Of a stretch of DNA of 28,572 bases, positions 6,617-27,596 are shown in pieces. Below the pieces are notes generated by a model that was not told the origin of the DNA, ran no database searches, and saw only the letters and a list, made by a program, of their open reading frames with translations. The position numbers and the translations under genes were made by a program. This DNA comes from a virus (Duplodnaviria; Caudoviricetes): the IMG/VR virus record IMGVR_UViG_3300033129_000617, positions 1 to 28,572 of that record; one strand, 5' to 3'. The stretch's first letter is position 1. Each line of letters starts with the position of its first letter.

Positions 6617-6849
6617 AGTTTTACTTCTAAAATTAATACAAAGATAAGGGATAGAGCTCCTACTCCTGCAGCCATTAATACAGATAGAGGAGAGATACCA
6701 TAGTAGGCTAATGTATATGCTACTCCTACCCAAAATGATAAACATACTGAGCAGGTAAAAGGCTTAAATTTTAGCACCTTAGGGAGGATAGTATAGCCTA
6801 CTAATACATATCCTAGAGATGCTGCTAATAAACTGATAATTAAATACAT
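6610..6849 (-). CDS. Small membrane protein with a CxxCxSFW motif (DUF1360-like)
   Basis: Hydrophobic segments flank 'KPFTCSVCLSFW'. Confidence 0.6.
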   Translation of the reverse strand: MYLIISLLAASLGYVLVGYTILPKVLKFKPFTCSVCLSFWVGVAYTLAYYGISPLSVLMAAGVGALSLIFVLILEVKLW

Positions 6850-7343
6850 ACTTTAAATTTAGTTTTTAGTTTTATCTTAATTGCATTTAAACTATTATAG
6901 ATACTCCTACGTGGGATATTGGTTAATCTATGTAGCTCTGATACATTCTGCCCCATCTCTAAATACTTTGCTAATAGCTTTCTCTCATAGTTCGTAAATA
7001 GCTCACTATTTAGGGCATCTACTACCTGAGGATAGAGTATATCAATCTCATGGTTATAAACATCTGCCTGAGGTAAATCAGTTTCTTTAATCTCTACTAC
7101 AATATCATAGAGCCTATACTTTTTACCTACTGCCCCTGTTTTACTCATCATATTAGATAAGCTCCTAACTGCCCAAAATTTAAAATATTTAGCAGCATGG
7201 AGGGCATCTAGCTCAGGCTCAGATTTAGAGCAGATCATTAGCATAAACTCCTGCCATAGATCCTCCCCCATAGAGCCTCCAATTTTATGAGCTATCTCCT
7301 GATACTCCTCATTATCTATCAGATGAGCTATTAGTTTATGCAT
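6840..7343 (-). CDS. ECF-like RNA polymerase sigma factor (candidate late transcription factor)
   Basis: Region-2-like 'EDLWQEFML....FKFWAVRSLSN' and region-4 HTH 'ERKLL..Y....NVSELHRLTNIPRRSIYNSL'. Sits before the packaging genes. Confidence 0.75.
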   Translation of the reverse strand: MHKLIAHLIDNEEYQEIAHKIGGSMGEDLWQEFMLMICSKSEPELDALHAAKYFKFWAVRSLSNMMSKTGAVGKKYRLYDIVVEIKETDLPQADVYNHEIDILYPQVVDALNSELFTNYERKLLAKYLEMGQNVSELHRLTNIPRRSIYNSLNAIKIKLKTKFKVCI

Positions 7344-9010: not shown

Positions 9011-9318
9011 ACTTTCCTGTAAAAGTTATGCCTGTACTCTCCGAATACATGAGGCTCTTTCTTGTAAATATAACAAACTGAAAAATAAAAACTACTGAGA
9101 GGCTTCATAAAGCCCATGAGGTTATTGTAAAAATACGTTCTTTCCTTTTTTAAATCATCTACATTTACCCCTGATGCTGCCAATAGATCAGGAGTATTAA
9201 GCAATCTATCCAGCCCTCTCAGGTAATCAAAATAAAATCTAACATAATCAATTTTATCAGCCATGCCGTAGCGTTTCTGAAAATTGTAATTATACTGCCC
9301 ATCTCTTTTGAAATTCAT
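9007..9318 (-). CDS. Hypothetical protein (103 aa)
   Basis: ORF preceded by a (TAAAACC)3 leader. ATGA overlap with the next gene. Confidence 0.7.
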   Translation of the reverse strand: MNFKRDGQYNYNFQKRYGMADKIDYVRFYFDYLRGLDRLLNTPDLLAASGVNVDDLKKERTYFYNNLMGFMKPLSSFYFSVCYIYKKEPHVFGEYRHNFYRKV

Positions 9319-9319
9319 A

Positions 9320-9340
9320 GGTTTTAGGTTTTAGGTTTTA
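9320..9340 (-). repeat. (TAAAACC)x3 leader repeat directly before ATG 9318
   Basis: Plus strand ggtttta x3. The same unit precedes starts at 12625, 13404, 14784 and 16672. Confidence 0.9.
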
Positions 9341-9341
9341 T

Positions 9342-9512
9342 TTATGATCCGCATCCAAAGCATTCAAAGCTGGAGCTCTCAGGCTTTTTATACTGCTGCT
9401 CCTGATCCTTTAGCTCTTTAATCCTTTTGTAAATCTCTGCATCATGCTCTGAAAAATCCCCTCTCAGCTGGAGGGTTAATGCCTCTATAGTTTGGTAATT
9501 TTGCATATCCAT
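9342..9512 (-). CDS. Unannotated 56-aa protein ending in CxxCGS
   Basis: MDMQNYQTIEALTLQLRGDFSEHDAEIYKRIKELKDQEQQYKKPESSSFECFGCGS. It fills the gap, uses genome-typical codons and has a promoter just upstream. Confidence 0.8.
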   Translation of the reverse strand: MDMQNYQTIEALTLQLRGDFSEHDAEIYKRIKELKDQEQQYKKPESSSFECFGCGS

Positions 9513-9517
9513 AATTA

Positions 9518-9530
9518 CAAATATAGCCGC
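9518..9530 (-). promoter_or_regulatory. Bacteroidota-type -7 promoter element GCGGC-TATATTTG
   Basis: Matches TAnnTTTG in an intergenic gap. Nearly identical to 14805-14817. Confidence 0.65.
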
Positions 9531-12424: not shown

Positions 12425-12625
12425 TTAAAAAATGTTTACTTCCTTAACTGCTCTATCTACAGAGGCATTATCCCATCCGAGATCATAGAGAGCTAAAAAT
12501 GTAGAGCTAACAATAGAAGTAAGATTATCATAATCTCCTGTATATGGGAGCTGGATCTTTACTTCTTTAGTTTCTTCTCCGATTTCAGTTACAAAACTGA
12601 TAGTGAATTTTGGTGATTTTTCCAT
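12425..12625 (-). CDS. Hypothetical protein (66 aa)
   Basis: ORF with its own -7 element and a TAAAACCTAAA leader. Confidence 0.7.
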   Translation of the reverse strand: MEKSPKFTISFVTEIGEETKEVKIQLPYTGDYDNLTSIVSSTFLALYDLGWDNASVDRAVKEVNIF

Positions 12626-12645
12626 TTTTTTAGGTTTTATGTTTA

Positions 12646-12653
12646 CAAAAGTA
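12646..12653 (-). promoter_or_regulatory. -7 promoter element TACTTTTG
   Basis: TAnnTTTG in a 29-bp gap, upstream of the TAAAACC leader. Confidence 0.55.
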
Positions 12654-12654
12654 T

Positions 12655-13404
12655 TTATTTTTTCTGAGCTAAAATATCTAGAGCTTCCTGCTGTTTACTT
12701 TTTAACGATTTTTTAGAGGTCGCTTTATTCTTGATCTCTGAGAGTTTTCTGCAGTAGTTAGCAAAATGCCTCAGGATCTCCTGATACTTTGCATAGGTAG
12801 AGCCCTGTAGCCTTGCATGGTTAATAAATTCCTCCCTAGCTAGAGCATAATCCTCTGAGCTTATTCCAGCATTCATGCAGTAGGTTTCTAGATGCATCTG
12901 ATCCTCTGCAAACTGCTCTAAAAGTTTCTCTGTTAATCCCTTAATATCATCATAATAATATTTAGTATTTACTTCTTTACCTATATATAAGGAGTGCCTA
13001 TGCATTTTTTGTATAGGCATTTGTTGAGGCACTTGTATAGGCATAGCATTTTGCTCCTGCATTTTTTGCATAGGCAAATGAGTAGGCAAATGAGTAGGCT
13101 CTGATGGGATGCCCAGCTTGATCTCTACCTGCATAGTCCTATACTGATTTTTAGCCTCAGAGATGATGGAAATAAATGAGGCATTTTTAAGCCTTTCTAG
13201 GCTCTTGTAAATCGTTCTAGTATCTACGCCTATTATTTGGCTTATCTCCTCGCTATAAAGAGATAAATGCCCTCTACTGCGATTTAAATTGTAAAGATGG
13301 GAGATATAAAAAGCTACTGCAAAATCTATAGGCTTAGCTCCTACGTTTGGCAGATAATCAAAGATCCATCTGCTGATACTATAGCCATCATATTTTTTAC
13401 TCAT
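12655..13404 (-). CDS. Replication initiator (lambda O-like architecture)
   Basis: N-terminal winged HTH (EEISQIIGVDTRTIYKSLERLKNASFI), a repetitive central linker encoded by DNA repeats, and a helical C-terminal domain. Confidence 0.75.
   Translation of the reverse strand: MSKKYDGYSISRWIFDYLPNVGAKPIDFAVAFYISHLYNLNRSRGHLSLYSEEISQIIGVDTRTIYKSLERLKNASFISIISEAKNQYRTMQVEIKLGIPSEPTHLPTHLPMQKMQEQNAMPIQVPQQMPIQKMHRHSLYIGKEVNTKYYYDDIKGLTEKLLEQFAEDQMHLETYCMNAGISSEDYALAREEFINHARLQGSTYAKYQEILRHFANYCRKLSEIKNKATSKKSLKSKQQEALDILAQKK
12961..13100. repeat. Putative replication origin: iteron-like repeats plus an AT-rich flank inside the initiator gene
   Basis: AGGC(A) cores at 13015, 13027, 13039 and at 13072, 13084, 13096 (12-bp period). 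TGCATTTTTTGYATAGGCA at 13001 and 13058. Inverted TGCCTA at 12995. Confidence 0.65.
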
Positions 13405-13420
13405 GGTTTTAGGTTTTAGG

Positions 13421-13428
13421 CAAAGATA
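13421..13428 (-). promoter_or_regulatory. -7 promoter element TATCTTTG for the initiator gene
   Basis: TAnnTTTG followed by (TAAAACC)2 and ATG. Confidence 0.65.
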
Positions 13429-13460
13429 AAAAAGCTCCCCTATCAGGAGAGCCTTTTTTT
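13428..13460 (-). terminator. Intrinsic terminator, possibly bidirectional
   Basis: GCTCTCCT-GAT-AGGGGAGC then T6 on the minus strand. T7 on the plus side. Confidence 0.75.
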
Positions 13461-13677
13461 ACTTTTGGAGATTATTTAGCTTTTCCTTTAGCAGCATAGT
13501 TAGCTCTAGGCTGATCTGAAGATTATCCTCAGCATTGATTTTAAATGGCTGTTTATGGTAGTATTTATCCATGAATAGCTGCAGCATCTTTTCTATCTGT
13601 AGTTTATGCTTAGGATCATTCGCTGGATGAGATACTATCCTATCTAGTTTCTGATAATCTTTAATAATGCCCATCAT
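13459..13677 (-). CDS. Hypothetical protein (72 aa)
   Basis: ATGA overlap with the upstream gene. Confidence 0.65.
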   Translation of the reverse strand: MMGIIKDYQKLDRIVSHPANDPKHKLQIEKMLQLFMDKYYHKQPFKINAEDNLQISLELTMLLKEKLNNLQK

Positions 13678-14141: not shown

Positions 14142-14784
14142 TAATATCTTCCTTTACTTTATTCCACTTTTTAGCCTGCTCATCTGAGAGCATATAGTTA
14201 TTAAATAAATAGCTCTCTATTTTAGCTCTCTCTGCTGCTGCTCCTGCTTCCTGATATCTAACTATAGCTCTAATAAATAGCTCCTCTGATACTTGCTCTA
14301 ATACTTTCTCCTGAGCTTTCTCTACAGGCTTAGCTGCTACAGGCTCAGGCTTACTATATACAGGCTTAGCCTCAGGTTTTTTAGGAGCTGCTTTATCATG
14401 CTGATTAGTAGCATCTGCATCCTTATTATCATCAATCAGTAGCAGAGCATTTAGGGCATACTTTCTAGCATAGCTGGATGCTGCTCCTGTAATCTGAGAT
14501 CCATCCATGCCCTTTTTATTCTCCTCCTCCCTAGCAAATGAGGTAGAAAAGATAGTATCTATCCCATCAGTATAGATAGCAGTAGCTTTAATATAGTACC
14601 TCTCCCCTATTAGCATGATCTCATCCTGCAGATAGAGAGAGATGCCCTCAGGTAGCAGAGGTTTTACACCCTCTACTATATCCTCACAGGATCTGTAGCT
14701 ATAGCCTCCAAACTTATTAAACTGATTTTTAGGAGCTTTTAATTTTACCTGTAGCTCTCTCAGGCTTTTTACCAATTTTTCCAT
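14134..14784 (-). CDS. erf: ERF-family single-strand annealing protein
   Basis: 'LKAPKNQFNKFG.Y.YRSCEDI.E.VKPLL' and 'KGMD.SQITGAASSYARKYAL......D..KDADA'. Confidence 0.92.
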   Translation of the reverse strand: MEKLVKSLRELQVKLKAPKNQFNKFGGYSYRSCEDIVEGVKPLLPEGISLYLQDEIMLIGERYYIKATAIYTDGIDTIFSTSFAREEENKKGMDGSQITGAASSYARKYALNALLLIDDNKDADATNQHDKAAPKKPEAKPVYSKPEPVAAKPVEKAQEKVLEQVSEELFIRAIVRYQEAGAAAERAKIESYLFNNYMLSDEQAKKWNKVKEDING

Positions 14785-14804
14785 ATTGTTTAGGTTTTAC
14801 TTGA

Positions 14805-14817
14805 CAAATATAACCGC
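14805..14817 (-). promoter_or_regulatory. -7 promoter element GCGGT-TATATTTG
   Basis: TAnnTTTG upstream of the TAAAACCTAAACAATATG start of erf. Confidence 0.65.
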
Positions 14818-14824
14818 TATTTTG

Positions 14825-15073
14825 TTAGCTGTTTCTTTTTTTACTTTTTTTAGGATATTCGCCTACCTGCCTATTATGGATGTACCTGATTAAAGTAGAT
14901 ACCATTTTTAGCTGTAGATCTTTCCTGATGCTGCCGCCATTTAAGGCTTTCCTGATAGTAGCTCTATTTACTTTAGATGATAGATGTAGCTCCTCTCTAG
15001 TGATGGAGTATAGATCCATCTGATTTAAAAAAGCCTCTCTAGTATCCTCAGGCATTATGATCATGTTACTCAT
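14825..15073 (-). CDS. Small HTH (Cro/Xre-like) DNA-binding protein
   Basis: 'ITREELHLSSKVNRATIRKALNG' helix-turn-helix pattern. Confidence 0.7.
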   Translation of the reverse strand: MSNMIIMPEDTREAFLNQMDLYSITREELHLSSKVNRATIRKALNGGSIRKDLQLKMVSTLIRYIHNRQVGEYPKKSKKRNS

Positions 15074-16217: not shown

Positions 16218-16429
16218 TCCTCTCCCTCCTGTAGCATCTCCTTGAATAGATGGAAAAATAGAGTAACTAGCACCCATACAAAAGCTAGAAAAGCCAGCAA
16301 TAAAATTGCTTTACCATTCCATGCAGATAGATCATAGCAATCTGCAGTAAATCCCATCAGCAGATAAATAGCTGCAGGGAGAGAGATGAGATAAAATGCC
16401 CATCTCAAAAATCCTTTTAAGTTTTTCAT
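16214..16429 (-). CDS. Early 2-TM membrane protein (71 aa)
   Basis: Two hydrophobic helices. Start context AAACAATATGAAAAAC. Confidence 0.75.
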   Translation of the reverse strand: MKNLKGFLRWAFYLISLPAAIYLLMGFTADCYDLSAWNGKAILLLAFLAFVWVLVTLFFHLFKEMLQEGEE

Positions 16430-16459
16430 ATTGTTTAAAGTTTAAAGGTTTCTACTTAA

Positions 16460-16672
16460 TTAGCCCTCAGCATCTACGATATAGGCTCTATAATCAAAGC
16501 CTACCCCTCCAGCATGATGATAATCTGAGGATAGAGATAGATCTAATACATCTGCTACCTCCTCTAGATAGTTAATAGCTTTCTCCTTACTTGCAAAATC
16601 CCTGCAGTAGTTAGGCTTTTCAGAGATATGCTGCTGCATAGGCTCTACTTTTACCTGATAAATAGTTTTCAT
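16460..16672 (-). CDS. First early gene, hypothetical (70 aa; start revised to MKTIYQ)
   Basis: The ORF track's longer start runs through the promoter. ATG 16672 follows AAAACCTAAAACCTAAAGAA. Confidence 0.7.
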   Translation of the reverse strand: MKTIYQVKVEPMQQHISEKPNYCRDFASKEKAINYLEEVADVLDLSLSSDYHHAGGVGFDYRAYIVDAEG

Positions 16673-16711
16673 TTCTTTAGGTTTTAGGTTTTTTGTTTCT
16701 TTACTATGTGA

Positions 16712-16741
16712 CAAATTTAATACCTTTTTTGTCATTGTCAA
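16712..16741 (-). promoter_or_regulatory. Main early promoter TTG-N19-TAAATTTG
   Basis: Matches the Bacteroidota -33/-7 consensus and spacing. Preceded by a long T-rich tract and two terminators. Confidence 0.85.
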
Positions 16742-16773: not shown

Positions 16774-16802
16774 AAAAAAAGCCCTGCAGATATTGCTAGG
16801 GC
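16774..16802 (-). terminator. Intrinsic terminator (second of a tandem pair)
   Basis: GCCCT(A)GCA-ATATC-TGCAGGGC followed by T7. Confidence 0.7.
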
Positions 16803-16827
16803 ATAAACATTTTTTTTCTTAATAAAT

Positions 16828-16890
16828 AAAAAAGCCCCTGCAATTAAGCAGAGGCTCTATAAAACCTAAAGCCTACTATGAAAAGGCAGT
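16828..16890 (-). ncRNA. Candidate antisense sRNA-1 (about 60-65 nt) ending in an intrinsic terminator
   Basis: ACUGCCUUUUCAUAGUAGGCUUUAGGUUUUAU-AGAGCCUCUGC-UUAAUU-GCAGGGGCUUUUUU. It has its own -7 element directly upstream, and its 5' part is complementary to early-gene leaders. Confidence 0.6.
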
Positions 16891-16891
16891 A

Positions 16892-16899
16892 CAAAGATA
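16892..16899 (-). promoter_or_regulatory. -7 element TATCTTTG upstream of candidate sRNA-1
   Basis: TAnnTTTG directly after the TAG of the last late gene, with no minus-strand ORF before the terminator. No clear -33. Confidence 0.55.
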
Positions 16900-17157
16900 C
16901 TAATTTTTCTCAGTATCATCTACAGCCATTTGAGAGATAGTAGTAATAATAGTGCCTGCAGTAATTAAATAGCCTGATAAAGATACTACAGCTAGAGGCA
17001 AAGCTACAGGAGTAGCAGCTAATGCCCCTCCGATTACTCCAGCTACTATCCCAATAGTTCTCAGCTTAGCGAAAAATGGAGGAGTAGGAGCTTTAATCCT
17101 CTCCATTACATCCATCTCATTAGCTTTTTTAGGTAGCAAATTTTTTAAATTTTTCAT
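16900..17157 (-). CDS. Membrane protein, possibly holin-like (85 aa; start revised to MKNLKN)
   Basis: 'ERIKAPTP.FF.KLR.IG' followed by two hydrophobic segments. Last gene of the late unit. Confidence 0.6.
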   Translation of the reverse strand: MKNLKNLLPKKANEMDVMERIKAPTPPFFAKLRTIGIVAGVIGGALAATPVALPLAVVSLSGYLITAGTIITTISQMAVDDTEKN

Positions 17158-19618: not shown

Positions 19619-20182
19619 TTAGAGGTCGCTTTCTCTCCTATTCCCATAAAATCTCCCTTTGCAATCATGGCAATCATCTAAAATTAAACCTAATGTATAT
19701 GCATCTCTGATAGGTAGCATCTTATCTATAGTACTATTAGCAGAGTAGGCTGGATAGCTAGAGCTATTAGCAATTAAATACTTTACCAACCTCTGCCCAT
19801 AAAACTCTGCTTTAATTCTATTCTTTTCAGTTACCTCTCTGATCTCATTTAATGATGCATAATTAGAGCCCTCTCCATTGTTTCTAGTTAGATCCCTGTT
19901 TACGAACTTATAGGAGATAGCCATAGGTAGCTCCATCATAATATAATAAACTAGGCAGGGCTTAATATAGCTCCTGAGCAGAGTAATATTATTAGTGCTA
20001 ATATCATCAGCTATAATCTCATCTGAGATCTCTACAAATAAATCAGTACCTAAAATAGGCTGCAGATACATATCCTGAGCTAGTAAAATAGTAGGTCTGA
20101 TTTTATCCATAGATAAATTTTCATCTACTATACTATACTCTTTTAGCCCCTGCTCAGTAATAAATAATGCTCTCTCACTCAT
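19619..20182 (-). CDS. Head-tail adaptor-like protein (start revised to MSERALF)
   Basis: Follows the portal with an ATGA overlap. 'LFI....LK.....N....I.P.I..AQD.YL.PILGTDLF...YIKP.L' helical family. Confidence 0.65.
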   Translation of the reverse strand: MSERALFITEQGLKEYSIVDENLSMDKIRPTILLAQDMYLQPILGTDLFVEISDEIIADDISTNNITLLRSYIKPCLVYYIMMELPMAISYKFVNRDLTRNNGEGSNYASLNEIREVTEKNRIKAEFYGQRLVKYLIANSSSYPAYSANSTIDKMLPIRDAYTLGLILDDCHDCKGRFYGNRRESDL

Positions 20183-22116
20183 GATTTTCTTTTTACTAAT
20201 TTCTGCATCCAAATATGCCTACAAAATGGATAGGTTAATCCTGTTTTACTATCAGTATAAAATCCTCCTCTTAGCTCCCATACGTTTCTGCCTGTAATAT
20301 TTGAGATAGTATCAATCTCCTCCCTACTAAATAGCTTAGGATTATCCAGCATATAGGCGCAAAATTCACGAGTAGTAGGTAGCTTAGCTGCTCCTGAGAA
20401 TTTTGGATTTTTTTCATACTGATATTTTACCTCCAAAAATCCCTCAGTAGATTTAATATAATCATCTACATCATCCCCGATTTTCCTAATACCTCTATCT
20501 ACTTTGATTAATCCCTTTTCTGTTAGGTAATTAAGCCTCTCAGATACTAGCTCCTCAGTAGCATCTACTTTATCTGCAATATCTCCAGCAGGCATATTAG
20601 GATCATCTTTCAAAATCTTTAAAATTAATTTATCTAGATCATCATACTGAGATGCGAAAAGCTGAGCCTCTGATTTTACTACCTCCTCAAAATTCTGAAA
20701 ATCAAAAATCTCTGCTTTTAATACCTCATAATTATCTGCATTCTCTCCATACTCAGAAAAAATATTAAAATCAAAATCATGAGCATTAAAAGATGCTGCA
20801 GGAGCTGGAGCTGCAGAAGTAATAGGCATTAATCCTACTATAGCTCTGATCTCATCTGCACTCATGCTCTCTAGCACCTTATTAGCTACTAATGGAGATA
20901 GCTGATTAATAGCATTGATTAATTGCTGCTGAGAGCCCTGAGTAGTATCAGGCAAAGGAGCTAGCCCTGCTATAGCTCTCATCTCATCCTTTGTAGATAC
21001 TTGTAATAATGTTTGCTCTGATAGCTGAGCAGTAATAGGCTCTAGCTGCTTAATCTCTAATGCATCATCTACCCCTTTAAAAGATAGGATATAATTAAAA
21101 ACTGAGCAGATGATATTCTGCCGATCTGATGCATAGATATTTTTAAATAGCTCATACGCATCTATCAGCTCATTTCTATTACCTAGAGAGCCTGCCTCCC
21201 TGATACCAAAAATCAGAGGGCTAGTAATTCTATGCGCTACAAATAACTCATTTTGCACCTGATCATTTAGTAGATTAAACTGATCAGGTAGATCAGAGGT
21301 AGGGATAGCATCAATAGTAGGAGCATTTTCTTTGCTATCATGGAACGTAATAAACATCCTGCCAGCATTATTAGTACCTCCCCATTTATCATTAATCTTT
21401 CTCTCTATAGTTCTAGCAGCATCCTCTGAGGGCTTTCCATCATTAAAGGAGATCATAAAGCCTCCCCAAAAATTATTATTTAGGTTATTAAGATGGAAAT
21501 TACTGATCTCTTTATCAATCTCTATATACTTTAGAGCCCCGATATAATCAGGGATAGCATATACTTTACCTCCAGCTGTATATTTTTTGTAAAATATCAT
21601 CTGCTTTCCTACCTTATTTTCAGGATCAAAAGCAGGGATTTTCTCAGCCTTATCAATTTTTGCGCTAGTTCCCCAATTTTCTAGAACATAGAAATAATTT
21701 AGCTCCTCATCAGTTCGTACCTTATTATACCCTACATGAGATACAGATACAGGCTGCTGATTTAAGCCCCATATAACCTCTAAATAAAAGCCATTAAATA
21801 GCTCAAAATCTGCTGCTACTTTATTAAGCAGATCATTAGCATCCTCATACGGATTAGGAGATGCTAGAAAAGCCTTTACTATATTCTGCTGCTCAGGGTT
21901 TAAATTTTTATTCTTAATGCTAAATCCGTTACCAATGATAAAGTTAATTTTACCATTGATCAGAGCGTTATGCTTAGCTGATTTAAGATAAAGATCTAAA
22001 AGTTTATCAGGATAATCATTCCTATCCCCTGAAAATACAATGCCTTTTACAGGCTTTTCTTTATACTCCTCAGGAGCATAGGCAGATAAATCTACTCTTT
22101 TAAATATTTGGCTCAT
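20179..22116 (-). CDS. Portal protein with a long C-terminal extension
   Basis: 'G..N.YP..L..LY..S..H.A.I..K...I.G.G', 'Y..PDY.GAL', 'AHRITSPLIFGI' and 'DE.R...GL.P'. Confidence 0.85.
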   Translation of the reverse strand: MSQIFKRVDLSAYAPEEYKEKPVKGIVFSGDRNDYPDKLLDLYLKSAKHNALINGKINFIIGNGFSIKNKNLNPEQQNIVKAFLASPNPYEDANDLLNKVAADFELFNGFYLEVIWGLNQQPVSVSHVGYNKVRTDEELNYFYVLENWGTSAKIDKAEKIPAFDPENKVGKQMIFYKKYTAGGKVYAIPDYIGALKYIEIDKEISNFHLNNLNNNFWGGFMISFNDGKPSEDAARTIERKINDKWGGTNNAGRMFITFHDSKENAPTIDAIPTSDLPDQFNLLNDQVQNELFVAHRITSPLIFGIREAGSLGNRNELIDAYELFKNIYASDRQNIICSVFNYILSFKGVDDALEIKQLEPITAQLSEQTLLQVSTKDEMRAIAGLAPLPDTTQGSQQQLINAINQLSPLVANKVLESMSADEIRAIVGLMPITSAAPAPAASFNAHDFDFNIFSEYGENADNYEVLKAEIFDFQNFEEVVKSEAQLFASQYDDLDKLILKILKDDPNMPAGDIADKVDATEELVSERLNYLTEKGLIKVDRGIRKIGDDVDDYIKSTEGFLEVKYQYEKNPKFSGAAKLPTTREFCAYMLDNPKLFSREEIDTISNITGRNVWELRGGFYTDSKTGLTYPFCRHIWMQKLVKRKS

Positions 22117-22468
22117 AATATGTTACATTATCTGCATAGCTACTAAATGCAGTATCATTATATAAATGCTCTGCTAGCCCTGCCTCTAATACCTTTACTA
22201 AATTACTATCATTAATATCTACTGCTACTCCATCAGATAAAAACACGCTGTATCTATACTGCCCATCCTTTAGAGCTGGAGCTGTAAAACTAAATCTATT
22301 AAATCTCTCAGGGTTAGGGCTCTGATCATTTCCTAAATCTATGAAATAGGAGGTATTAGTAGCAATATGCAGTAAAGATAAATAATAATAGGGAGTAGCT
22401 ATATCAATAGCCTCATCTCCTATAGTTATCAAAATGATATTCTCTATATCCTTAGTTAAATAAATCAT
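22100..22468 (-). CDS. Hypothetical structural-module protein (122 aa)
   Basis: Beta-rich ORF overlapping the portal start. Confidence 0.65.
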   Translation of the reverse strand: MIYLTKDIENIILITIGDEAIDIATPYYYLSLLHIATNTSYFIDLGNDQSPNPERFNRFSFTAPALKDGQYRYSVFLSDGVAVDINDSNLVKVLEAGLAEHLYNDTAFSSYADNVTYYEPNI

Positions 22469-22506
22469 CTATCTATAAATAGAGATAGCCTCAAAAATGA
22501 GCAAAT

Positions 22507-22564
22507 AAAAAGCCCCTGCTAATGCAGGAGCTCAAAACAATATGAAAAACGGAAAAGGTATTTA
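22507..22564 (-). ncRNA. Candidate antisense sRNA-2 / 3'UTR element with an intrinsic terminator
   Basis: UAAAUACCUUUUCCGUUUUUCAUAUUGUUUUG-AGCUCCUGC-AUUA-GCAGGGGCU-UUUU. Sixteen nt are an exact complement of the start region of gene 16214..16429. The terminator is solid, the ncRNA call is tentative. Confidence 0.55.
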
Positions 22565-25347: not shown

Positions 25348-27581
25348 AATCTACTATTAGTTTTTAATCGGTTAGCTCTTTTCTGTTTACTGCTAATATC
25401 ACTCTCTACTACATAGGCTCTGATCTCTGAGCCTTTATCCTTATTTTGTAGCTGAGTAGAGATAGGCATAGCTGGCGTAATAGCTGCCCCTGATGCTGTT
25501 AGGCTAGGAGCTGCAGTAGATCCTTTACCTCCTGATGAGCTAGATCCTCCTGCATCAGATTTATATTTTTGAGCTCTAATTTGCGCTACGTTCGCTAGCC
25601 CTGCTGCTACTGCTGCTGCTGCTGCCACAAATGGAGCACCGGGAAAGGCTGCAGTTAATGCAGTATTAGCTGCTGTAGCATTAAAGGCATTGATAGCAGA
25701 GCTATAGGTAGCTACTAATGCAGAGGCAATATCTAGGGCTTTCTTTCTTTCAAAGGATTTTTTTCTTAGCTCCTCCTGCTTAGCCTCATTTCCCTCAGCC
25801 TCAGCTATCTGATTTTTATAGTAGCTCTCTATTAGTTTTGAGGCAGTACCTATAGAGCTGGATAATTGCTCAGTAATAAAGTTATTTAATGCTATCCTGC
25901 TAGCTTTCTCATCCTCTGCTAGTGTTTTACGTTCTTGCGTTAATTTAAATACTCCCTCATTAAACTGCTCCTCAGTAATTAGCTGCTTATCTCTAGCATC
26001 TTTTAGGGCTTTCTCCTCTAAATCTAGAGTATTTTTTCTTAGCTCAAAGTTAGATTTATTAGCCTGCATCTGCATATCTAATACTTTCATAGTATTAGTA
26101 AATGCAGCCTGAGCATCATTTACTGCATTAATGCTCTCCTGCTTTTTTCTCTTTTCTGCATAGAGCTGATTAATCTGATCTATTTTTTTATTTCTCTCCT
26201 CAGTAGATAGCACCTCAGCATCTAGAGCCTTAATATCTGCTGCCTTTTGTAGATCCAGCTCCTTTAATGCTCTCTGCCCCTCATTTTGGATAGTAGCTAA
26301 AAATGCCTCATCTTTGATAGCTTGCATCTGAGCCTCAAAATCTAGAGCCTGCTTTTTATCCTCCTCATTAAATTTATTAATGAGCTCTACTCTCTCAGAA
26401 TTTTGTTTTTTATCTAGGGCAGCTGTTAGCTTAGCTCTCTCCTGCTTTGTTAGCTTCATAGTAGCTAGCTCATCCTTTTCTTTCTGCTGCTGAGATACTA
26501 GATTAAATAGCTCTCTATCTCTCTCATCTTTTATCCTGAGTAGAAAAGCCTCAGCCTCTATATCTCTGAGCTTATTAGCTGCAGCTCTAGCTCTATCCTG
26601 CTCCTCTTTTCTTAATCTCTCAGCCTCTTTAGCTTTATCTGCAGCCTCTTTTTTTCTTTTCTCAGCCTCCTCTTTAGCTTTCTTTTCCTTTTCTGCTAGG
26701 CTTTTATTATACTCTACATCAGCAATCTGTAAATCAACCTTTAAATTTTCAATATCATTTTTGAGCTCCTTAATTTTCTGCTTTCTCTCCTCAGTAGCAT
26801 CCTCTGCCTGAGCTTTTTCTAGCAATCTTAGAGCTGCTTGGTTATCATGGATTTTACTCTGTAGGGCTAATGTTTGCTCAAAATATGCTAACTGATCATT
26901 ACCCTGAGCCTTAGCTAATTTAGCCTCCCTCTCATATCCAGCAGCATTTAAATCTGCAGCTGCTTTAAATCTTTCTGCTGCCTCCTCTGCTGTAGTTCCT
27001 GTTTCACTCATTAGGGAGATGATCTCAGTTAACGCATAGATCAAAGCTCCTACCCCTGTTGCAACTAATGCAGCTCTAAATGCCTTAGTAGCCAATGTAG
27101 CTCCCTGAGTAACAAAGGTATAAACCTTCATAACTCCCTCTTGGATCTTCATGCCTACTACGTTATTTTTCTGAGTAAGGTTAGCTAGCTCAGTTATCCC
27201 CTGCAGCATAGCCATAGCTCCCTGTACTTTCATTAGAGCCTTTTCTACCTCTTTATTCTCAGAGCCAAACAAAGCCATAGCACCCTGAGCAGCAGCAAAG
27301 CCTGCAGCTATTCCCTTAGCTACTCCTACAGCTAAATCTAATTTAGGGAAATCTGATGATAGGATATTTACCCTATCATTCATATCCCCTATCCTATCCT
27401 TTAGCTCCCCTGCTCTGCTCTCTAGCTCTCTAAATTTCTCGCTGGCTGTATCTCCTGCAGCTGCTAAAGTTCTGAGCTCCTTTTGTACCTGCTTAAATTC
27501 AGTACGCAAATCAGTAGTGCCCTTTTTACTACCTGAGGCATCTACGTTAATATCTATTACAATCTCTCTTTTATCAGCCAT
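25344..27581 (-). CDS. Tape measure protein (745 aa)
   Basis: Long Ala/Lys/Glu coiled coil with hydrophobic segments (ALVATGVGALIYAL; FVAAAAAVAAGLANVAQI) and a C-terminal 'IRAYVVESDI'. Confidence 0.85.
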   Translation of the reverse strand: MADKREIVIDINVDASGSKKGTTDLRTEFKQVQKELRTLAAAGDTASEKFRELESRAGELKDRIGDMNDRVNILSSDFPKLDLAVGVAKGIAAGFAAAQGAMALFGSENKEVEKALMKVQGAMAMLQGITELANLTQKNNVVGMKIQEGVMKVYTFVTQGATLATKAFRAALVATGVGALIYALTEIISLMSETGTTAEEAAERFKAAADLNAAGYEREAKLAKAQGNDQLAYFEQTLALQSKIHDNQAALRLLEKAQAEDATEERKQKIKELKNDIENLKVDLQIADVEYNKSLAEKEKKAKEEAEKRKKEAADKAKEAERLRKEEQDRARAAANKLRDIEAEAFLLRIKDERDRELFNLVSQQQKEKDELATMKLTKQERAKLTAALDKKQNSERVELINKFNEEDKKQALDFEAQMQAIKDEAFLATIQNEGQRALKELDLQKAADIKALDAEVLSTEERNKKIDQINQLYAEKRKKQESINAVNDAQAAFTNTMKVLDMQMQANKSNFELRKNTLDLEEKALKDARDKQLITEEQFNEGVFKLTQERKTLAEDEKASRIALNNFITEQLSSSIGTASKLIESYYKNQIAEAEGNEAKQEELRKKSFERKKALDIASALVATYSSAINAFNATAANTALTAAFPGAPFVAAAAAVAAGLANVAQIRAQKYKSDAGGSSSSGGKGSTAAPSLTASGAAITPAMPISTQLQNKDKGSEIRAYVVESDISSKQKRANRLKTNSRL

Positions 27582-27596
27582 ATCTATAAATATAAA

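Follow-up and report, generated by a model that had tools for sequence, protein, structure and literature searches.

A compact unit of promoter, anti-start block and terminator lies between the late and the early genes of a small phage. We read it, with somewhat more confidence than doubt, as the source of a predicted FopS-like small RNA that acts as a delayed brake on early-gene translation. The unit has a defined anatomy and is complementary to early start regions beyond what shuffled sequences give. It is conserved in relatives, and pairs better with the starts of its own genome than with foreign ones. FopS and GibS have so far been described as metabolic regulators of the host, in gut Bacteroides. 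If the reading is right, phages have redirected the FopS design onto their own early genes, which would give a simple account of how recombination and replication proteins are limited without a classic repressor circuit.

The phage and its promoter-to-terminator unit

The window analysed here is a whole virus record of 28.6 kb, with a CheckV completeness of 98%, and its minus strand holds every called gene. The late side encodes terminase, portal, protease and tape measure, and the early side encodes Erf, an HNH nuclease, a resolvase-like gene and a protein with a weak DnaD-like match. The identity of erf, a ssDNA-annealing protein, was confirmed. We infer a host in the Bacteroidota, placed to phylum only, because TAnnTTTG boxes precede the genes and the leaders are A-rich.

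A preliminary description of this DNA had placed a -7 element, about 30 non-coding nucleotides and a strong terminator directly after the last late stop codon. This arrangement was recovered, with 33 non-coding bases between box and terminator (Table 1). The distance from a Bacteroidota -7 box to the start site is given as 4-5 nt in the available text of PMC6847099, and the predicted +1 of the unit falls at 16887 on the minus strand, 4 nt after the box. The -7 motif by itself is no evidence, because 32 copies are found in the window against 28.7 expected. Support for this particular box comes from its position and its conservation, and its promoter activity is a prediction from sequence. The terminator (16858-16831) folds at -23.1 kcal/mol, with a z score of -4.1. 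At the 5' end, a GCCU/AGGC stem of 4 bp is predicted between 16887-16884 and 16874-16871 with pair probabilities of 0.95-0.98, placing CAU in a 9-nt loop. Opposite the unit, a 20-codon open reading frame begins at 16878 on the plus strand. The RNA runs X1-X3 correspond to contigs of related strains, and the unit regions of the window and of the relative L045 lie outside them.

Table 1. Features of the unit, its predicted targets and the second anti-start stretch (window coordinates)
Feature	Position	Strand	Remark
Last late gene, 85 aa	16900..17157	-	No PHROG or Pfam match; served as synteny anchor
Bacteroidota -7 box TATCTTTG	16892..16899	-	Immediately 3' of the TAG of gene 16900-17157
Predicted small RNA, about 60-62 nt	16826..16887	-	From folding and architecture kept in relatives
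Anti-start block UUUUCAUAGUA	16874..16884	-	Same 11 bases as the FopS-10/GibS 5' end
Anti-leader seed UUUAGGUUUUA	16860..16870	-	Predicted single-stranded
Intrinsic terminator, 11-bp stem and U tract	16826..16858	-	Also ends the late operon
Second hairpin and U tract	16774..16802	-	Separates the unit from the first early promoter
First early -7 box (16712-16719), leader, start of 16672	16666..16719	-	Predicted target, 12-nt and 7-nt match
-7 box, leader, erf start	14778..14812	-	Predicted target of both anti-start units
-7 box, leader, putative initiator start (weak DnaD-like)	13400..13428	-	Weakest predicted target
-7 box, leader, start of 12625	12619..12653	-	Predicted target, 12-nt match
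Tandem TAAAACC leader and start of 9318	9312..9341	-	Strongest predicted target
Second anti-start stretch (22550-22535), terminator (22533-22510)	22504..22550	-	Putative tail-tube 3' UTR; without full -7 box
Gene 16429 start region	16421..16436	-	Exact 16-nt complement of 22550-22535; 0/500 shuffles

Predicted pairing with the early start regions

The complementarity is concentrated on a few early genes. On the minus strand TAAAACCTAAA occurs in exactly six copies (9323, 9330, 12629, 13408, 14789 and 16676), all of which sit just ahead of five starts (16672, 14784, 13404, 12625 and 9318), and its inverted form occurs once, in the unit at 16860-16870. With at most one mismatch there are 12 matches against 1.44 expected, a number seen in none of 100 shuffles. 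The 11-mer that had been noticed before five ATGs is thus real, and so are the match lengths given for it: 12 nt at 16672 and 12625, 11 nt at 14784 (erf) and 13404 (initiator), and 17 nt with one mismatch at 9318. The second block described at 16672, UUUUCAU:AUGAAAA, was likewise found, adding 7 nt to the 12.

Comparison with shuffled sequences upholds the proposed pairing. Matches of at least 10 bases to the RNA body fall on exactly these five among the 47 starts, and five were reached in 1 of 3000 dinucleotide shuffles. The pairing was computed as ViennaRNA duplex and co-folding energies; the mean duplex energy of the best five starts is -19.7 kcal/mol, compared with -15.1 +/- 1.2 in shuffles (1 of 1000 shuffles). 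When the folding of both partners is counted, 9318, erf, 16672 and 12625 take ranks 1-4 of 47, and 2 of 31 shuffles equalled the observed value in this folding-corrected test.

Two points of the earlier picture need trimming. The targets had been taken as the first genes of early units, and a -7 box does precede four of the five; however, 9318 is second in its unit here, behind 9512. That gene has a -7 box at 9512-9525 (-), whose position would leave it nearly leaderless. The initiator was also named as a target and has its 11-nt match, but its -7 box lies so near that a transcript from it would keep 9 of the 11 motif bases, and the start drops to rank 8 of 47 because its promoter would trim the motif.

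Under the delayed-brake reading, the host polymerase would transcribe an RNA of ~60 nt from 16887. This RNA would pair in two blocks, with the seed UUUAGGUUUUA on the A-rich leader and UUUUCAU over the AUG, and would block translation initiation, as FopS-10 does. Since the unit and the early genes share a promoter type, the RNA would build up during infection and act with delay on Erf, the initiator and their neighbours; this timing is the most speculative part.

Conservation and covariation in relatives

Loci in relatives were found through the upstream-gene anchor, which gave 42, some of them redundant. The -7 box is present in 41 of the 42, and box, anti-start block, GGUU block and terminator occur together in 39 of 40 syntenic loci that reach far enough (19 distinct sequences). 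A strict finder reports one unit per genome in 23 of 28 genomes or loci, two more were read by eye, and the junction of L113 holds no unit. Two close relatives, at about 87% protein identity, keep the unit behind a different upstream gene. In clade C the unit lies within the late operon, on the opposite strand and upstream of a conserved scaffold start, and therefore must be its own transcription unit there; in further clades it stands at the end of the late block. The clade C terminator has changed on both sides in 4 of 8 pairs. In L045 (7633-7936) a gene for 101 aa is inserted directly 3' of the unit, its -7 box overlapping the terminator U tract.

The 5' stem fares less well. In clade C, 64% of its cells are paired and one pair has double changes; elsewhere it is present with other letters in several clades and absent in others. 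With this level of pairing in clade C and no double changes in several clades, it was rejected as a family-wide structure. The GCCU/AGGC stem that was said to present CAU in a loop is therefore predicted for the window and only partly conserved across clades.

Among the 39 loci the anti-start codon reads CGT in 27 and CAT in 12, and CGT drops the ATG of the opposite strand yet keeps a G:U pair with AUG, which argues for RNA pairing on the minus strand. The discrete multi-target anti-start RNA of the preliminary description, still a prediction, is strengthened by this change from CAT to CGT, by the conserved promoter, anti-AUG block and terminator, by the clade C placement, and by better pairing with own than with foreign starts.

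These observations bear on a quite improbable alternative with no functional RNA, by which TAAAACC would represent Cro-like operators or plain composition, and the inverted copy an extra site or the leader of the 16878 frame. The sites do lie right behind -7 boxes and in 7-bp tandem repeats, the window genome prefers AACCT over AACCA by 60:17, and the small plus-strand frame exists. However, the orientation is strict, with six sense copies and one antisense, the anti-AUG block is conserved, and no gene stands between promoter and terminator. The CGT of 27 of the 39 loci removes the plus-strand ATG and retains the G:U pair, and clade C does not keep the frame that would start at that ATG. A candidate for the Cro-like protein is the 82-aa product of 14825-15073 (-), a lead that is Cro/XRE-like by features and predicted structure and has no PHROG match; the TAAAACC repeats could be its binding sites.

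A matrix of each RNA against the start regions of each genome covered 16 genomes or loci in 11 clades, with self-overlaps removed. It took 16 of 25 candidate rows; G031, G032 and L174, where the finder saw no unit, were not entered, and the gene starts in relatives came from a custom ORF caller. Own starts beat foreign ones with p 0.00005 over the 11 clades, and among six clades with structural genes in common it was reached in 1 of 720 orderings, the lowest possible value. Internal ATGs, used as a control, gave 81 of 720 when scored by energy, 6 of 720 when scored by longest match, and p 0.02 for 11 clades; this weaker preference indicates that part of the signal is composition.

The seed and the leaders move together in part. 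In clade A an AGGUU seed goes with AACCT leaders (6:0, 6:1, 6:0), and in clade B a UGGUU seed goes with leaders that are mostly AACCA. The seed is AGGUU in clades C and D too, though their leaders are mostly AACCA, so that covariation fails at one position. The genome-wide use of AACCT and AACCA moves in the same way as the A and B seeds. The expected covariation of seed and leader is seen in the own-genome preference and in clades A and B, fails at that one position in C and D, and owes a share to composition. In 11 of 12 genomes the erf start is among the top 4 partners of the genome's own RNA. RNAs of clades A and B place each other's erf much lower: clade-B erf starts take ranks 5-27 with the window RNA, and the window erf takes ranks 11-36 with clade-B RNAs. 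In two close relatives the anti-start block reads CUCAUAGG, and their orthologs of erf, 9318 and 16672 begin with ATG-AG, not ATG-AA/GA, although after ACCTAA leaders ATG-AG is found in only 4 of 7 and 3 of 6 cases.

Another reading would make the RNA an immunity or carrier-state repressor in place of a protein repressor. The host-type promoter fits it, as do erf and the putative initiator among the targets and the lack of a divergent gene; in clade C, transcripts of the late operon would cancel out the RNA like an anti-immunity transcript. Nevertheless, we consider it unlikely. No tyrosine integrase (PF00589) was found in 18 records, four of them with terminal repeats, and serine integrase and partition genes had no match in the window. 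The Cro-like gene and a sigma-like gene are present as leads, the initiator pairs weakly once its promoter position is counted, and there is no sign of a silent state. The earlier suggestion of RNA-only immunity is thus not supported. The accompanying claim of no divergent repressor holds in so far as every called gene is on the minus strand; the Cro/XRE-like lead qualifies it. The sigma-like lead, at 6840-7343 (-), encodes 167 aa and falls, by features, near sigma70-r2/r4 and GerE-type clusters; it has no PHROG match and is a candidate late activator. The portal gene (20179-22116, -) has an HTH-like segment in its C-terminal part, at residues about 492-549.

RNA-level control of phage genes is known from P1 C4, P4 CI and P22 sar, which guard lysogeny via one or two loci. 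These had been offered as precedents; unlike them, the window phage shows no sign of lysogeny, and its unit has the anatomy of FopS. The real precedent is FopS/GibS of Bacteroides.

Resemblance to FopS and a second anti-start stretch

FopS (RF04319) and the phage unit are built alike. In both, a canonical TAnnTTTG -7 promoter lies directly upstream with the start 4 nt on, followed by a 5' part that is rich in U and contains UUUUCAUAGUA, then by an (A/U)GGUU block and an own terminator. In the unit, 11 of the 11 bases of UUUUCAUAGUA agree with the FopS primer AWO-881 of the PMC11697453 supplement, and the flanks differ. According to the available text of the same paper, FopS of B. thetaiotaomicron is 65-70 nt long, pairs with the start codons of first genes and blocks translation in vitro; its targets are host SusC-like genes, and FopS RNAs are the main RbpB ligands through their 5' part. 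That text mentions a single phage copy, and treats it only as something that may carry the FopS family.

The predicted phage RNA, at about 60-62 nt, is slightly shorter than the 65-70 nt of FopS with its intrinsic terminator, and the pairing over start codons of unit-first genes is predicted to be the same. The differences lie in number, target and predicted fold. FopS has 12-15 chromosomal copies, whereas the small, apparently non-integrating phage has one full unit and one 3'-UTR stretch; FopS targets host SusC transporters, and the unit's predicted targets are the phage's own early genes; the 5' region is unpaired in the Rfam FopS consensus, while a short 5' stem is predicted in the unit. 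Over the full RF04319 model the unit scores 15.9 bits against a gathering cut-off of 56 bits, so we regard it as built like FopS and, by prediction, working like it, and do not file it as a member. A model made from the phage units gives FopS-type loci 9-19 bits and the window's own unit 17.3, a weak likeness of primary sequence. The Rfam scan of the whole window returned nothing at gathering level, and 1 of 33 other viral records, of gut type, passes the RF04319 cut-off.

GibS (RF04182) has the same 5' core (primer AWO-241) and pairs over start-codon regions, but it is 145 nt long with a non-canonical PM2 promoter and metabolic host targets, in the available text of PMC7366714; RF04182 gave no match at E up to 10 on 16800-16920. 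Among phage small RNAs that pair with host or phage mRNAs are lambda PreS, VpdS and antisense OOP, as given in the accessible part of bioRxiv 10.1101/2024.10.31.621285. By that account, these RNAs are Proteobacterial; PreS is Hfq-dependent and activates host dnaN, and OOP is cis-encoded with one target, unlike the multi-target phage unit. They are likened to the unit by function, and no sequence relation is implied. In the accessible portion of a 2026 review (PMC13750123) the word phage is absent, and a search of open-licence PMC and bioRxiv, with subscription journals outside its scope, found no paper on a self-targeting FopS-like phage RNA.

Similar units on chromosomes raise the question of whose mRNAs are addressed. 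The strict unit pattern was found in 7 of 301 genomes of a phylum sample, so the unit is not general on chromosomes at that strictness; collection-wide, about 1300 stretches are estimated, the named ones mostly in Bacteroidales. Look-alikes on Bacteroidales chromosomes in some cases pass or approach the RF04319 cut-off. Units of promoter, anti-start block and terminator (L307-L424) were seen in Tannerellaceae, Paludibacteraceae, Prevotellaceae, Porphyromonas, Alistipes and Cryptobacteroides, a range wider than the Bacteroidaceae stated for FopS, and they pair well with the window's early leaders. Over the five leaders, the mean pairing of look-alikes, which were chosen by a pattern that includes the seed, is -17.1 and -18.8, compared with -18.1 for the phage RNA. 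Equally good pairing by look-alikes means that the targets belong to a general class of strong start regions, and it keeps alive a rather doubtful alternative. By this, the unit would encode a genuine FopS-like RNA whose main targets are host mRNAs with strong start regions, e.g. those of outer-membrane transporters; the match to phage leaders would be a by-product, since RNA and leaders would each reflect the strong start region typical of Bacteroidota.

That alternative agrees with the host SusC-like targets of FopS (PMC11697453, available text), with the near fixation of the anti-AUG core over clades and chromosomes, and with look-alikes ranking the five phage targets as high as the phage RNA does. 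Most of 64 viral pattern matches turned out on inspection to be ordinary gene starts of the opposite strand, and the plus strand over the 13404 leader outscores the unit on RF04319. However, own-genome preference and the reciprocal specificity of clades A and B speak against it, and the exact leader ahead of an ATG is rare on the host side: it precedes five genes in the window, whereas five Bacteroidota-type genomes, the phage's own host being placed to phylum only, gave 10 matches compared with 13 for a reversed control. The plus-strand match, at 13342-13464 over the initiator leader and an upstream hairpin, scores 24.5 bits and has a TACGTTTG box under it at 13342-13349; it is possibly a cis-antisense RNA, or possibly chance. 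The exact 5'-hairpin pattern had one match in viral contigs, the unrelated L001, and was dropped.

The RNA might also serve as a decoy that occupies an RbpB-like RNA-binding protein of the host, or act as a sponge, with leader pairing secondary. RbpB binding through the 5' part of FopS RNAs (PMC11697453, available text) would suit it, but the leader-specific covariation would be left unexplained, and we hold it to be very improbable.

The delayed-brake reading gains a possible late component from the second anti-start stretch, which has a 10-base match between 22550-22535 and the erf start. Late transcripts of the window genome, ending at the shared terminator, would together with the tail-tube 3' UTR add anti-start RNA late. 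In clade C late transcription would yield the complement of the unit, so late amplification cannot hold as a general explanation. Of 89 distinct tube 3' UTRs, 29 contain T[TC]CAT, compared with 7.2 in shuffles (maximum 14), these sequences being related and not independent. In G340 the tube 3' UTR carries CGU, and erf ranks 1 of 45. When tube UTRs were compared with the starts of their own genomes, 4 of the 8 genomes gave a significant match and the remaining 4 did not. A near-box, TACCTTTT, precedes the second stretch, and the -7 box at this site is complete in some relatives (L498, L536).

We suggest, tentatively, that a large family of small non-integrating Bacteroidota phages times its expression by a stand-alone FopS-like RNA and a second RNA cut out of the tail-tube 3' UTR, which co-evolve with the early leaders and converge on erf. 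One short RNA could then silence the whole early program, because Bacteroidota leaders lack a Shine-Dalgarno sequence and have one motif in common. If true, host FopS-like RNAs could attack the same phage leaders as a defence. Should the delayed-brake reading hold, the unit would also be a small scaffold for knock-downs in Bacteroidota and a clue to the origin of FopS.

Two further motifs were noticed on the late side. TATTTATAGAT stands just 5' of two late start codons, at 27581-27592 and 22468-22481 (-), looser copies precede 7626 and 3128, and the relatives L221, L260 and L128 have their own repeated motif ahead of the same late genes; motifs of this type are a possible late promoter that yields very short leaders. 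In L530, L540, L544 and L545 the region 3' of the tube gene holds a different conserved -7 box, a body of about 40 nt (GAATTA...ATACCGCAT) and a terminator, another candidate small RNA.
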